Of a stretch of 64,000 bases of DNA, positions 23,940 through 52,692 are shown piece after piece (the first letter of the stretch is position 1; every line of letters starts with the position of its first letter). Made by a program: the position numbers and the translations under genes. The notes beneath the pieces are model-generated. The model worked only from the letters and a program-made list of their open reading frames with translations, was not told the DNA's origin and did no database searches. The DNA comes from Escherichia coli (GTDB lineage: Bacteria; Pseudomonadota; Gammaproteobacteria; Enterobacterales; Enterobacteriaceae). Location of the stretch: the NCBI RefSeq assembly GCF_030013595.1, contig NZ_CP122768.1. One strand, written 5' to 3'.

Positions 23940-25031
23940 ATGCGTTTTCTGCGCCGACCAATATCGCTGCGCCAACGGCTGATATTGACCATTGGGGCCA
24001 TTTTGTTGGTGTTTGAGCTGATCAGCGTCTTCTGGCTATGGCATGAAAGTACCGAGCAGATTCAGCTGTTTGAGCAGGCGCTACGCGACAATCGCAACAA
24101 CGATCGCCACATCATGCGTGAGATCCGCGAGGCGGTCGCCAGCCTGATCGTCCCCGGCGTCTTTATGGTCAGCCTGACGCTATTTATCTGCTATCAGGCG
24201 GTACGCCGCATCACCCGCCCGCTGGCGGAGCTGCAAAAAGAGCTGGAAGCGCGCACCGCCGACAACTTAACGCCCATTGCCATTCACAGCGCCACCCTCG
24301 AAATCGAAGCGGTGGTTTCGGCGTTAAACGATCTGGTCAGTCGCCTGACCAACACGCTGGATAACGAAAGGTTGTTTACCGCTGACGTCGCGCACGAACT
24401 GCGAACGCCACTGGCGGGGGGGCGTTTGCATCTGGAACTGCTGGCGAAAACGCATCACATTGATGTAGCACCGTTAGTGGCACGGCTTGATCAGATGATG
24501 GAGAGCGTCTCCCAGCTGCTGCAACTGGCGCGTGCCGGACAGTCATTTTCTTCCGGTAATTATCAACATGTAAAACTGCTGGAAGATGTCATTCTCCCCT
24601 CGTATGACGAACTCAGTACCATGCTCGACCAGCGACAGCAAACCCTGCTATTGCCAGAGAGCGCCGCCGACATCACCGTTCAGGGTGATGCAACCCTGCT
24701 GCGGATGTTATTGCGAAACCTGGTAGAAAACGCCCATCGTTACAGCCCGCAAGGCAGCAACATTATGATTAAGCTGCAAGAAGATGGCGGAGCGGTCATG
24801 GCTGTTGAAGATGAAGGACCGGGTATTGATGAGAGTAAATGCGGGGAGTTGAGTAAAGCATTTGTACGTATGGACAGCCGTTATGGCGGGATTGGTCTGG
24901 GGTTAAGTATTGTCAGCCGCATTACACAGTTGCATCACGGGCAGTTTTTCCTGCAAAACCAGCAAGAGACTTCCGGCACGCGGGCCTGGGTACGGCTGAA
25001 GAAAGATCAGTACGTGGCAAACCAGATATAA
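23940..25031 (+). CDS. basS: Sensor histidine kinase BasS (PmrB)
   Basis: ORF track 23931..25031 begins at TTG; the ATG at 23940 (MRFLRRPISL) gives 363 aa; two TM segments, H-box (ADVAHELRTP), HATPase motifs. Confidence 0.9.
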   Translation: MRFLRRPISLRQRLILTIGAILLVFELISVFWLWHESTEQIQLFEQALRDNRNNDRHIMREIREAVASLIVPGVFMVSLTLFICYQAVRRITRPLAELQKELEARTADNLTPIAIHSATLEIEAVVSALNDLVSRLTNTLDNERLFTADVAHELRTPLAGGRLHLELLAKTHHIDVAPLVARLDQMMESVSQLLQLARAGQSFSSGNYQHVKLLEDVILPSYDELSTMLDQRQQTLLLPESAADITVQGDATLLRMLLRNLVENAHRYSPQGSNIMIKLQEDGGAVMAVEDEGPGIDESKCGELSKAFVRMDSRYGGIGLGLSIVSRITQLHHGQFFLQNQQETSGTRAWVRLKKDQYVANQI

Positions 25032-25096
25032 AGAAAGCTGCTGACCACCAGCACGCTGAACACGGTAGTTAAACTTTCATAAACACGGTTTTTCAT
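25007..25096 (-). CDS. pmrR: Small membrane protein PmrR (29 aa), PmrA-regulated
   Basis: Not in ORF track. Hand translation of the minus strand from ATG at 25096 to TGA at 25007 gives MKNRVYESLTTVFSVLVVSSFLYIWFATY; its 3' end overlaps the basS 3' end by 25 bp in antisense. Confidence 0.8.
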   Translation of the reverse strand: MKNRVYESLTTVFSVLVVSSFLYIWFATY

Positions 25097-25140
25097 TGCA
25101 CTCTCCTCCGTTAACCTGGAGGAGAGTATGCGCGTCAGAG

Positions 25141-25157
25141 ATTAAGTGAACCTTAAG
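25141..25157 (-). promoter_or_regulatory. Putative PmrA (BasR) box upstream of pmrR
   Basis: Minus strand reads cttaag gttca cttaat, same half-site architecture as the eptA box, about 45-60 bp upstream of the pmrR ATG. Confidence 0.6.
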
Positions 25158-25166
25158 ACTTCAATT

Positions 25167-30814: not shown

Positions 30815-30832
30815 TTGTATTGTGATCGGTAA

Positions 30833-30908
30833 GCCGGATAAGGCGCTCGCGCCGCATCCGGCAACGATGCCGACAGCCTGATGCGACGCTGACCGCGTCT
30901 TATCAGGC
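30833..30908. repeat. REP elements (two units) between yjdM and yjdN
   Basis: gccggataaggcgctcgcgccgcatccggc and gcctgatgcgacgctgaccgcgtcttatcaggc read directly. Confidence 0.7.
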
Positions 30909-30973
30909 TTCCCTCTCATCTGTATAAATTTCGAACTACACTTAACTGGCTTCTCTTAACTGAGGTCACCATC

Positions 30974-31417
30974 ATGCCGTTAAGTCCCTACCTCTCTTTT
31001 GCCGGTAACTGTGCCGACGCAATTGCTTATTATCAACGTACGTTGGGCGCTGAACTGCTCTATAAAATCAGCTTCGGCGAAATGCCAAAATCAGCGCAGG
31101 ACAGCGCCGAGAACTGCCCTTCCGGAATGCAATTTCCCGATACCGCCATCGCCCACGCCAATGTGCGCATTGCCGGAAGCGATATCATGATGAGCGATGC
31201 TATACCGTCAGGAAAAGCCAGCTACTCCGGCTTTACGCTGGTGCTCGATTCGCAACAGGTCGAAGAAGGAAAACGCTGGTTTGACAACCTTGCCGCTAAC
31301 GGAAAAATCGAAATGGCCTGGCAGGAAACTTTCTGGGCGCATGGCTTCGGCAAAGTCACCGATAAATTTGGCGTACCGTGGATGATTAATGTCGTCAAAC
31401 AACAACCAACGCACTAA
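30974..31417 (+). CDS. yjdN: VOC/glyoxalase-fold protein PhnB/YjdN
   Basis: ORF track 147 aa, ATG start; position between yjdM and phnC. Confidence 0.88.
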   Translation: MPLSPYLSFAGNCADAIAYYQRTLGAELLYKISFGEMPKSAQDSAENCPSGMQFPDTAIAHANVRIAGSDIMMSDAIPSGKASYSGFTLVLDSQQVEEGKRWFDNLAANGKIEMAWQETFWAHGFGKVTDKFGVPWMINVVKQQPTH

Positions 31418-31443
31418 CCCGCCGGGAGGGCCGCCCTCCCGCA

Positions 31444-31505
31444 CTGTCATCGAAATCTCGTTAACTCTTCATCCGTTAGTCACTTTTAGTTAACAAAATC
31501 GTCAC
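31444..31505 (+). promoter_or_regulatory. Putative Pho box array of the phnC promoter
   Basis: 11-bp-phased 7-mers resembling CTGTCAT (ctgtcat cgaa atctcgt ...; tagtcac tttt agttaac aaaa tcgtcac) 45-105 bp upstream of the phnC ATG. Exact boxes not verified. Confidence 0.5.
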
Positions 31506-31549
31506 AATAATCCGCCACGATGGAGCCACTTTTTTAGGGAGGCTGCATC

Positions 31550-32338
31550 ATGCAAACGATTATCCGTGTCGAGAAGCTCGCCAAAACCTTCAATCAGCAT
31601 CAGGCGCTGCACGCGGTTGATCTGAACATTCATCACGGTGAAATGGTGGCTCTGCTTGGGCCGTCGGGTTCCGGCAAATCCACCCTTTTACGTCACTTAA
31701 GCGGTTTGATTACCGGCGATAAATCTGCCGGTAGCCATATCGAGCTGCTGGGTCGCACAGTCCAGCGCGAAGGCCGCCTGGCCCGCGATATCCGCAAAAG
31801 CCGCGCCAACACCGGCTACATCTTCCAACAATTCAACCTGGTGAATCGCCTGAGCGTACTGGAGAACGTGCTGATTGGCGCGCTCGGCAGCACGCCATTC
31901 TGGCGCACCTGTTTTAGCTACTTCACCCGCGAGCAGAAACAGCGCGCGTTACAGGCGCTGACCCGCGTTGGCATGGTGCACTTTGCCCATCAGCGCGTTT
32001 CCACCCTCTCCGGCGGACAGCAGCAGCGTGTGGCGATTGCCCGTGCGCTGATGCAGCAGGCGAAGGTGATTCTGGCCGATGAACCCATCGCCTCGCTGGA
32101 CCCGGAATCGGCGCGCATCGTGATGGACACCCTGCGCGACATTAACCAGAACGACGGCATTACCGTGGTCGTCACGCTGCATCAGGTGGATTACGCCCTG
32201 CGCTACTGCGAACGCATCGTCGCCCTGCGCCAGGGGCACGTCTTCTACGACGGCAGCAGCCAACAGTTTGATAACGAACGTTTTGACCATCTCTACCGCA
32301 GCATCAACCGCGTCGAAGAAAACGCGAAAGCTGCCTGA
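31550..32338 (+). CDS. phnC: Phosphonate ABC transporter, ATP-binding subunit
   Basis: ORF track 262 aa; Walker [13 protein letters not shown] signature LSGGQQQR; GGGAGG RBS. Confidence 0.93.
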
Positions 32339-33439: not shown

Positions 33440-34219
33440 ATGCAAACCATCACCATCGCCCCACCCAAGCGCAGCTGGTTCTCGCTTCTGAGCTGGGCCA
33501 TTGTTCTCGCCGTGCTGGTCGTCTCGTGGCAGGGCGCGGAAATGGCCCCGCTCACGCTGATTAAAGACGGCGGCAACATGGCAACCTTCGCCGCCGACTT
33601 CTTCCCGCCCGATTTCAGCCAGTGGCAGGATTACCTCACCGAAATGGCCGTCACGCTGCAAATCGCCGTCTGGGGCACCGCGCTGGCGGTGGTTCTCTCC
33701 ATCCCCTTCGGTCTGATGAGCGCCGAAAACCTAGTGCCGTGGTGGGTTTACCAGCCCGTACGCCGCCTGATGGACGCCTGCCGCGCCATTAACGAAATGG
33801 TCTTCGCCATGCTGTTCGTGGTCGCCGTCGGCCTTGGCCCGTTCGCTGGCGTGCTGGCGCTGTTTATCCACACCACCGGCGTGCTCTCCAAACTGCTTTC
33901 CGAAGCGGTAGAAGCAATTGAACCCGGCCCGGTGGAAGGTATTCGCGCCACCGGTGCCAACAAGCTCGAAGAGATCCTCTACGGCGTGCTGCCGCAGGTG
34001 ATGCCGCTGCTGATCTCCTACTCCCTCTATCGCTTCGAATCCAACGTCCGTTCGGCCACCGTTGTTGGCATGGTCGGCGCTGGCGGGATCGGCGTCACCC
34101 TGTGGGAAGCGATTCGCGGTTTCCAGTTCCAGCAAACCTGCGCCCTGATGGTGCTGATTATCGTCACGGTCAGCCTGCTGGATTTCCTCTCTCAACGGTT
34201 GCGTAAGCACTTTATCTGA
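33440..34219 (+). CDS. phnE: Phosphonate ABC transporter permease, apparently intact
   Basis: ORF track 259 aa uninterrupted; ABC permease EAA-like region; two tandem near-identical octamers gctggcgt/gctggcgc at 33845..33860 with the reading frame open. Confidence 0.9.
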
Positions 34220-50544: not shown

Positions 50545-52692
50545 ATGAAAAAAGTCGTCACGGTTTGCCCCTATTGCGCATCAGGTTGCAAAATCAACCT
50601 GGTCGTCGATAACGGCAAAATCGTCCGGGCGGAGGCAGCGCAGGGGAAAACCAACCAGGGTACCCTGTGTCTGAAGGGTTATTATGGCTGGGACTTCATT
50701 AACGATACCCAGATCCTGACCCCGCGCCTGAAAACCCCCATGATCCGTCGCCAGCGTGGCGGCAAACTCGAACCTGTTTCCTGGGATGAGGCACTGAATT
50801 ACGTTGCCGAGCGCCTGAGCGCCATCAAAGAGAAGTACGGTCCGGATGCCATCCAGACGACCGGCTCCTCGCGTGGTACGGGTAACGAAACCAACTATGT
50901 AATGCAAAAATTTGCGCGCGCCGTTATTGGTACCAATAACGTTGACTGCTGCGCTCGTGTCTGACACGGCCCATCGGTTGCAGGTCTGCACCAATCGGTC
51001 GGTAATGGCGCAATGAGCAATGCTATTAACGAAATTGATAATACCGATTTAGTGTTCGTTTTCGGGTACAACCCGGCGGATTCCCACCCAATCGTGGCGA
51101 ATCACGTAATTAACGCTAAACGTAACGGGGCGAAAATTATCGTCTGCGATCCGCGCAAAATTGAAACCGCGCGCATTGCGGACATGCACATTGCACTGAA
51201 AAACGGCTCAAACATCGCGCTGTTGAATGCGATGGGTCATGTCATTATTGAAGAAAACCTGTACGACAAAGCGTTCGTCGCTTCCCGTACAGAAGGCTTT
51301 GAAGAGTATCGTAAAATCGTTGAAGGCTACACGCCGGAGTCGGTTGAAGATATCACCGGCGTCAGCGCCAGTGAGATTCGTCAGGCGGCACGGATGTATG
51401 CCCAGGCGAAAAGCGCCGCCATCCTGTGGGGCATGGGTGTAACCCAGTTCTACCAGGGTGTGGAAACCGTGCGTTCTCTGACCAGCCTCGCGATGCTGAC
51501 TGGTAACCTCGGTAAGCCGCATGCGGGTGTAAACCCGGTTCGTGGTCAGAACAACGTGCAGGGTGCCTGCGATATGGGCGCGCTGCCGGATACGTATCCG
51601 GGCTATCAGTACGTGAAAGATCCGGCTAACCGCGAGAAATTCGCCAAAGCCTGGGGCGTGGAAAGCCTGCCAGCGCATACCGGCTATCGCATCAGCGAGC
51701 TGCCGCACCGCGCAGCGCATGGCGAAGTGCGTGCCGCGTACATTATGGGCGAAGATCCGCTGCAAACTGACGCGGAGCTGTCGGCAGTACGTAAAGCCTT
51801 CGAAGATCTGGAACTGGTCATCGTTCAGGACATCTTTATGACCAAAACCGCGTCGGCGGCGGATGTTATTTTACCGTCAACGTCGTGGGGCGAGCATGAA
51901 GGCGTGTTTACTGCGGCTGACCGTGGCTTCCAGCGTTTCTTCAAAGCGGTTGAACCGAAGTGGGATCTGAAAACGGACTGGCAAATCATCAGTGAAATCG
52001 CCACCCGTATGGGTTATCCGATGCACTACAACAACACCCAGGAGATCTGGGATGAGTTGCGTCATCTGTGCCCGGATTTCTACGGTGCGACTTACGAGAA
52101 AATGGGCGAACTGGGCTTCATTCAGTGGCCTTGCCGCGATACTTCAGATGCCGATCAGGGGACTTCTTATCTGTTTAAAGAGAAGTTTGATACCCCGAAC
52201 GGTCTGGCGCAGTTCTTCACCTGCGACTGGGTAGCGCCAATCGACAAACTCACCGACGAGTATCCGATGGTACTGTCAACGGTGCGTGAAGTTGGTCACT
52301 ACTCTTGCCGTTCGATGACCGGTAACTGTGCGGCACTGGCAGCGCTGGCTGATGAACCTGGCTACGCACAAATCAATACCGAAGACGCCAAACGTCTGGG
52401 TATTGAAGATGAGGCATTGGTTTGGGTGCACTCGCGTAAAGGCAAAATTATCACCCGTGCGCAGGTCAGCGATCGTCCGAACAAAGGGGCGATTTATATG
52501 ACCTACCAGTGGTGGATTGGTGCCTGTAACGAGCTGGTTACCGAAAACTTAAGCCCGATTACGAAAACGCCGGAATACAAATACTGCGCCGTGCGCGTCG
52601 AGCCGATCGCCGATCAGCGCGCCGCCGAGCAGTACGTGATTGACGAGTACAACAAGTTGAAAACTCGCCTGCGCGAAGCGGCACTGGCGTAA
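50545..52692 (+). CDS. fdhF: Formate dehydrogenase H, selenocysteine-containing molybdoenzyme (in-frame UGA at 50962..50964 read as Sec)
   Basis: ORF track splits this into 50545..50964 and 51013..52692 in the same frame; the only interruption is TGA at 50962..50964 (...NNVDCCARV-U-HGPSVAGLHQSVGNG...); N-terminal Fe-S Cys motif CPYCASGC; total 715 codons. Confidence 0.93.
50962..51005 (+). other. Selenocysteine UGA codon plus downstream SECIS stem-loop
   Basis: tga cacggcccatcggttgcaggtctgcaccaatcggtcggtaatggc: a hairpin-forming segment immediately 3' of the in-frame UGA, matching the recalled fdhF SECIS. Confidence 0.85.

Follow-up and report, generated by a model that had tools for sequence, protein, structure and literature searches.

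The region from 31444 to 31549 of the window (the whole 64,000-nucleotide stretch of Escherichia coli DNA that was analyzed, to which all coordinates refer) holds, with a probability that we set at about 0.9, the promoter of phnC, a sigma-70, PhoB-activated promoter of the phn operon for phosphonate uptake and C-P lyase. This promoter is already well studied, work on the K-12 allele has established its identity and its PhoB dependence, and its PhoB array is real, conserved, and ordinary for its promoter class. A PhoB-activated promoter had been proposed here in a sequence-only reading of the window, and the proposal was borne out by published PhoB binding and phoB-dependent phnC RNA in K-12.

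The region forms part of the 132-bp yjdN-phnC intergenic region of E. coli. On its upstream side, yjdN (147 aa) ends at 31417, and on its downstream side lies phnC (31550 to 32338, + strand), a 262-aa open reading frame for the phosphonate ABC transporter ATPase and the first gene of the phn operon. The yjdN-phnC junction (31300 to 31700) was present in 5,414 of 5,426 complete E. coli genomes, and the downstream gene carried the phnC annotation in 5,400 E. coli genomes. By sequence reading, the Shine-Dalgarno element of phnC is AGGGAGG at 31536 to 31542 (+), which ends 7 nt 5' of the ATG. An Rfam search of 31418 to 31549 returned no match to a known RNA family. Elsewhere in the window, Rfam matches were obtained for naRNA4/CssrE, a nucleoid-associated noncoding RNA, between yjdM and yjdN (30832 to 30909, +; 85.5 bits compared to a gathering threshold of 59.5), for the sRNA STnc630 (25000 to 25165, -; 181 bits), and for the SECIS_2 selenocysteine insertion element (50957 to 51011, +; 87 bits).

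The phnC promoter in K-12 and in the window

In K-12, PhoB has been located in vivo on ATTAACCAAATCGTCACA by ChIP-chip (PMC3465305) and ChIP-seq (PMC10294691), and both genome-wide studies reported one 18-mer only at phnC. The published phnC RNA level was 32,470 in the wild type and 13 in a phoB deletion strain (PMC10294691), that is, a phoB dependence of about 2,500-fold for the K-12 allele. Sigma-70 occupancy at phnC was >2-fold lower in the phoB deletion strain, and Pi starvation induced phnC 81-fold in O157:H7. A KD of 1.7 μM was obtained for the phnC promoter by EMSA (PMC6194859), and BLI data have also been published (PMC6194859, PMC4447250). Among the five Pho promoters tested by Gao and Stock, phnC had the highest off-rate and the latest onset (PMC6194859, PMC4447250), and its ChIP-seq score was 2, compared to 38 for pstS (PMC10294691). 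The ChIP-seq peak center for phnC was reported at MG1655 position 4325211 (PMC10294691); with the MG1655 phnC start at 4325165, this corresponds to window position 31504, in the downstream half of the promoter-proximal Pho box. The peak position, for which support of occupancy further upstream had been expected, thus gave none, the center being on the proximal box. In the accessible literature, we found no footprint or mutagenesis of the upstream phnC units.

Alignment to the published K-12 promoter (Gao and Stock 2018, PMC6194859; MG1655) also agreed with the identification, with six substitutions in 135 bp and none at a TGTCA-core position. Two of these lie at non-core positions of the proximal box (31489 and 31495), unit 2 of the half-site array has another two, and a spacer and the hairpin 3' of yjdN have one each. 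The K-12 phnC promoter has the same locus and architecture, and its -10 hexamer, 5' untranslated region, and Shine-Dalgarno element are identical to those of the window. With the substitutions at 31489 and 31495, the proximal box scored 14.8 bits with our PhoB matrix (see below), compared to 12.9 bits in K-12. The window allele (31418 to 31552) is in the minority, with 391 of 5,396 records at least 99% identical to it, and most E. coli are K-12-like.

A separate observation was made in E. coli UPEC69 (NZ_CM136998.1, L083:1480-1560), a single assembly in which the yjdN-phnC gap is only 39 bp. Here, a 93-bp deletion (corresponding to window 31412 to 31504) between the imperfect direct repeats CAATAA(C/T)CCGCC appears to have removed the hairpin and every Pho-box unit, with the -10 hexamer kept, which predicts that the phn operon of this strain would not be PhoB-inducible.

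Proximal Pho box, -10 hexamer, and putative start site

An 18-mer PhoB matrix was built from the 58 ChIP-seq sites of Fitzgerald et al. 2023 (PMC10294691, Table 1), with phnC excluded. Across both strands of the 64 kb, the top match of this matrix was 31489 to 31506 (GTTAACAAAATCGTCACA), with 14.8 bits compared to a training median of 15.5, and this 18-mer is the window allele of the published K-12 PhoB site. The promoter-proximal Pho box itself (31488 to 31505, +) consists of units 5 and 6 of the array, AGTTAAC aaaa TCGTCAC. As in other Pho boxes, these are two direct TGTCA-type heptamers with a 4-bp A/T spacer and an 11-bp period; the upstream half has the noncanonical TTAAC. The box would span -40 to -23 and thereby replace a -35 element.

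The -10 hexamer CACGAT (31516 to 31521, +), of which CA..AT is invariant across genera, lies 10 bp 3' of the Pho box. The same 10-bp gap was measured in MG1655 at pstS (CTGTCAC + 10 bp + TATTTT) and phoA (TTGTCAC + 10 bp + TATAGT), as well as at phoB (CTGTCAT + 10 bp + CATAAT; sequence as published), using in each case the hexamer that we take to be the -10 of the reference promoter. A consensus scan of 31444 to 31549 gave no sigma-70 promoter with a -35 element, which is to be expected where transcription depends on an activator, and on this result a canonical sigma-70 promoter in the region was rejected. The putative transcription start is A31528 (+), which lies 7 nt 3' of the -10 hexamer and is invariant in the alignment of enterobacterial promoters. 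A start at this position would give a 22-nt leader with AGGGAGG.

Phased PhoB half-sites upstream of the proximal box

A 7-mer half-site matrix was made from both halves of the 58 ChIP-seq sites. In the region, the heptamers of a single 11-bp register start at 31444, 31455, 31466, 31477, 31488, and 31499, the last one ending at 31505, 44 nt 5' of the ATG at 31550, and five of the six are half-site-like. Unit 1 (CTGTCAT, 31444 to 31450, +; predicted -84 to -78) is a perfect distal half-site, which scored 9.1 bits and was in the top 0.03% of the window. Unit 2 (ATCTCGT, 31455 to 31461, +) is in register and is no half-site, with -9.1 bits, at about the 30th percentile of window positions. Units 3 and 4 make up an upstream Pho box, TCTTCAT ccgt TAGTCAC (31466 to 31483, +; predicted -62 to -45), with 3.7 bits for unit 3 (31466 to 31472; top 1%), 5.0 bits for unit 4, and 6.2 bits for the 18-mer as a whole (top 0.07%). 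The two halves of the proximal box, units 5 and 6, scored 4.0 and 7.4 bits.

The coordinates given for the heptamer array in the sequence-only reading were right, and four of its five heptamers (ctgtcat, tagtcac, agttaac, and tcgtcac) held up. The fifth, atctcgt, was the nonmatching unit 2, and the matching tcttcat had been missed. Its wider claim of multiple Pho boxes, although it had one unit wrong and lacked another, was strengthened by the phasing statistics and by conservation across genera. Between 31400 and 31545, five + strand half-sites were in the top 2%, all in one phase; a sixth such 7-mer, CATCATG (31546), is not in this phase and runs into the ATG. Phased sums over three, four, and six units each ranked first among approximately 128,000 window positions, and when the 132-bp intergenic region was shuffled 3000 times with its dinucleotides preserved, at most three phased half-sites arose, compared to the five observed. 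An alternative register through CTGTTAG (31473 to 31479 in the K-12 allele) was also considered and rejected, since it runs 4 bp off the phase of the array, lacks conservation (CCGTTAG in the window), and is at odds with the ChIP-derived motif.

Phased arrays were also recovered with this matrix at pstS (four half-sites) and at ugpB (with gaps), so that phnC shows the usual pattern of a multi-box Pho promoter. Both pstS (two tandem boxes) and ugpB (three) have 11-bp-phased half-sites upstream of the box that replaces the -35, and, as at phnC, some members of the arrays are weak or missing. At phnC, however, units 1 and 6, at the two ends of the array, are the best half-sites, and the proximal box is much weaker than the best box of pstS (14.8 compared to 23.7 bits). 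Footprints have been obtained experimentally at pstS and ugpB.

Conservation of the array across genera

A PhnC scan with one genome per species gave 80 loci. At all 26 enterobacterial loci, and at 41 of the 54 loci from Vibrio, Pseudomonas, and others, the 150 bp preceding phnC contained a box scoring 10 bits or more; the corresponding proportion among coding control blocks was less than 1%. The best box was nTTAAC..AA..GTCACA at all 25 enterobacterial loci other than Hafnia, and at these loci its distance to the ATG was 41 to 45 nt.

An alignment of 21 Enterobacteriaceae sequences was free of gaps from unit 1 through the -10 hexamer to about 31528, with gaps only in the leader just 5' of the ATG, and conserved cores alternated with variable spacers. 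The TTCA of unit 3, the TAAC of unit 5, both spacer A's of the proximal box, the CA..AT of the -10 hexamer, and the C, the A, and the final A of GTCACA in unit 6 were invariant in all 21 sequences; the remaining bases of TTAAC and GTCACA were kept in at least 90% of them. For unit 4 (G..AC), the A was found in 21 of 21, and at least 90% had the G and the C. Sequence differences in unit 2 occurred between E. coli alleles as well as between genera, and the spacers were variable too. The noncanonical TTAAC was present in 25 of 26 Enterobacteriaceae sequences, the exception being one Citrobacter with ATAAC.

Mean half-site scores were calculated for 26 sequences at 100 offsets, and they were above 0 at -55, -33, -22, -11, and 0. 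Besides these five register offsets, only +24 was positive (1.3 bits), out of phase and downstream, near the -10 hexamer. Unit 1 was kept as TGTCAT/C in 21 of the 26 sequences and was absent in Buttiauxella (L017), Cedecea (L080), Enterobacter sp. R1 (L047), LSJC7 (L019), and a related MAG (L018). It was present in Shimwellia (L021) and in an Enterobacter MAG (L067), where no yjdN was detected upstream.

Outside the enterobacteria, many phnC genes of Pseudomonas and Stutzerimonas (among loci L030 to L079) were preceded by strong Pho boxes, such as GGTCACGCAAGTGTCACG. The boxes lie about 65 to 105 nt upstream of phnC in these genera, and the box-to-ATG distance is approximately constant at 94 to 102 nt. 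PhoB control of phnC therefore looks more widespread than the "few species" of PMC10294691.

A conserved hairpin at the 3' end of yjdN

A GC-rich hairpin without a U tract lies at the 3' end of yjdN (31423 to 31441, +). Its 8-bp stem is formed by CGGGAGGG (31423 to 31430) and CCCTCCCG (31434 to 31441) around a CCG loop (31431 to 31433); the sequence-only reading had recognized the structure and placed it slightly wrong, at 31421 to 31442. The hairpin folds at -15.9 kcal/mol, with a z-score compared to shuffles of only -1.4 because the stretch is GC-rich. It resembles Rho-independent terminators in its GC-rich 8-bp stem, its short loop, its location directly after the stop codon, and the accompanying drop in RNA. 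It differs from them in that the stem is followed by CACUGUCAUCG instead of a U tract and in that the terminator scan called no + strand terminator at the hairpin. A canonical intrinsic terminator in the region was rejected on these grounds.

Hairpins with other stem sequences were found at the same place in Citrobacter, Kluyvera, Enterobacter, Leclercia, Silvania, and others, and 3 of the 7 consensus pairs showed changes on both sides. In RNA-seq of the phoB deletion strain, values of 485/448 for yjdN and 15.7/9.4 for phnC have been published (Fitzgerald et al. Table S1, PMC10294691), so that RNA falls about 37-fold from the first gene to the second, or about 66-fold when counted per base. 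Nearly all yjdN transcripts must therefore be stopped or removed before phnC, and the hairpin is the obvious candidate for this barrier, whether intrinsic, Rho-assisted, or dependent on processing. It may stabilize the 3' end or act together with Rho. The earlier suggestion that the hairpin may terminate yjdN thus has partial support, from the conserved structure and the strong RNA barrier, but any such terminator, lacking a U tract, would be noncanonical.

In Enterobacter sichuanensis, Lelliottia, and E. quasihormaechei (L013 to L015), the yjdN hairpin is replaced by a REP-like palindrome, GCGCCCGGTGGCGCTGCGCTGACCGGGCCTAC. The palindrome is located about 100 to 150 nt upstream of phnC and is directly followed by the conserved CTGTCATC; the E. 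quasihormaechei (L015) variant is TTGTCATC.

Proposed mechanism and alternative explanations

Under phosphate limitation, PhoB is phosphorylated by PhoR, and PhoB~P dimers bind head-to-tail on 22-bp Pho boxes, each with two 11-bp units and a TGTCA-like core. At phnC, as is established for K-12, PhoB~P on the proximal box (31488 to 31505) recruits RNA polymerase to the weak -10 hexamer CACGAT; PhoB acts here in the place of a -35, via sigma region 4, and transcription would start at about 31528. The hairpin would mark the 3' end of yjdN and help to insulate the promoter against read-through. The proximal box appears to be intrinsically weak because its upstream half has an invariant TTAAC in place of TGTCA, and it would be flanked, in strict helical phase, by the second box (31466 to 31483) and the distal lone perfect half-site (31444 to 31450). 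These upstream units probably raise PhoB occupancy cooperatively, in the manner of pstS and ugpB. Judging from the near-invariance of TTAAC, weakness seems to be a conserved property of the site, and a conserved weakness fits with the late, high-threshold phnC induction reported by Gao and Stock. We tentatively propose, at somewhat under even odds, a conserved three-box array in which the proximal box is held weak by selection and is compensated by the second box and the distal half-site two helical turns upstream, an arrangement that would set a late, high-threshold switch-on of phosphonate use.

It could also be hypothesized that only the proximal Pho box works and that the phased heptamers upstream of it, as accidental or decayed relatives, play no part in activation. 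The ChIP-seq center coincides with the proximal box, whereas heavy occupancy of the distal units would be expected to displace it upstream, each genome-wide study reported one 18-mer, units 3, 4, and 5 are weak (about 3.6 to 5.0 bits), and unit 2 is no site; furthermore, Buttiauxella, Cedecea, Enterobacter sp. R1, LSJC7, and the related MAG have units 3 to 6 without unit 1. Decayed or accidental relatives would, however, not be expected to show an invariant TTCA in unit 3 and, in unit 4, a G..AC that at least 90% of the 21 sequences share, next to variable spacers. There are also no indels across the Pho-box array, so that the helical phase is kept, unit 1 is retained where the flanks have diverged, and none of the 3000 shuffles gave the array. 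We consider a single working box unlikely, though still a serious contender.

The conservation of unit 3 reaches 3 to 4 bp upstream of the half-site core, and conserved upstream blocks such as AACTCTTCA (31463 to 31471) might instead serve a role unrelated to PhoB, as an alpha-CTD/UP-like contact or as the site of a second regulator. Against this, every conserved block is in the PhoB register and each is positive with the half-site matrix, we found no report in the literature of another factor at the phnC promoter, and the region was not flagged as H-NS bound (PMC10294691), making such a role improbable. Finally, the phasing could be a chance pattern in an AT-rich intergenic region, where single weak heptamers (3.6 to 5 bits) are found at about 1% of positions. 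Chance phasing was refuted by the shuffles (0 of 3000), the window-wide ranks (first of approximately 128,000 positions), and the conservation across genera, and we give it practically no weight compared to a conserved array of PhoB half-sites.

Significance

For the window strain, the result has little weight beyond annotation: the strain has an intact PhoB-controlled phn promoter and an apparently intact phnE. The phnE frame (33440 to 34219, +; 259 aa) is uninterrupted, phnE being cryptic in E. coli K-12 through an 8-bp insertion, and the window strain is probably able to use phosphonates. A modest addition to what has been published is that enterobacterial genera share both the phased half-sites upstream of the proximal box and the weak TTAAC half of that box. 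The conservation of these elements is in keeping with an earlier proposal in the literature, by which PhoB sites of low affinity set the late timing of phosphonate gene induction.
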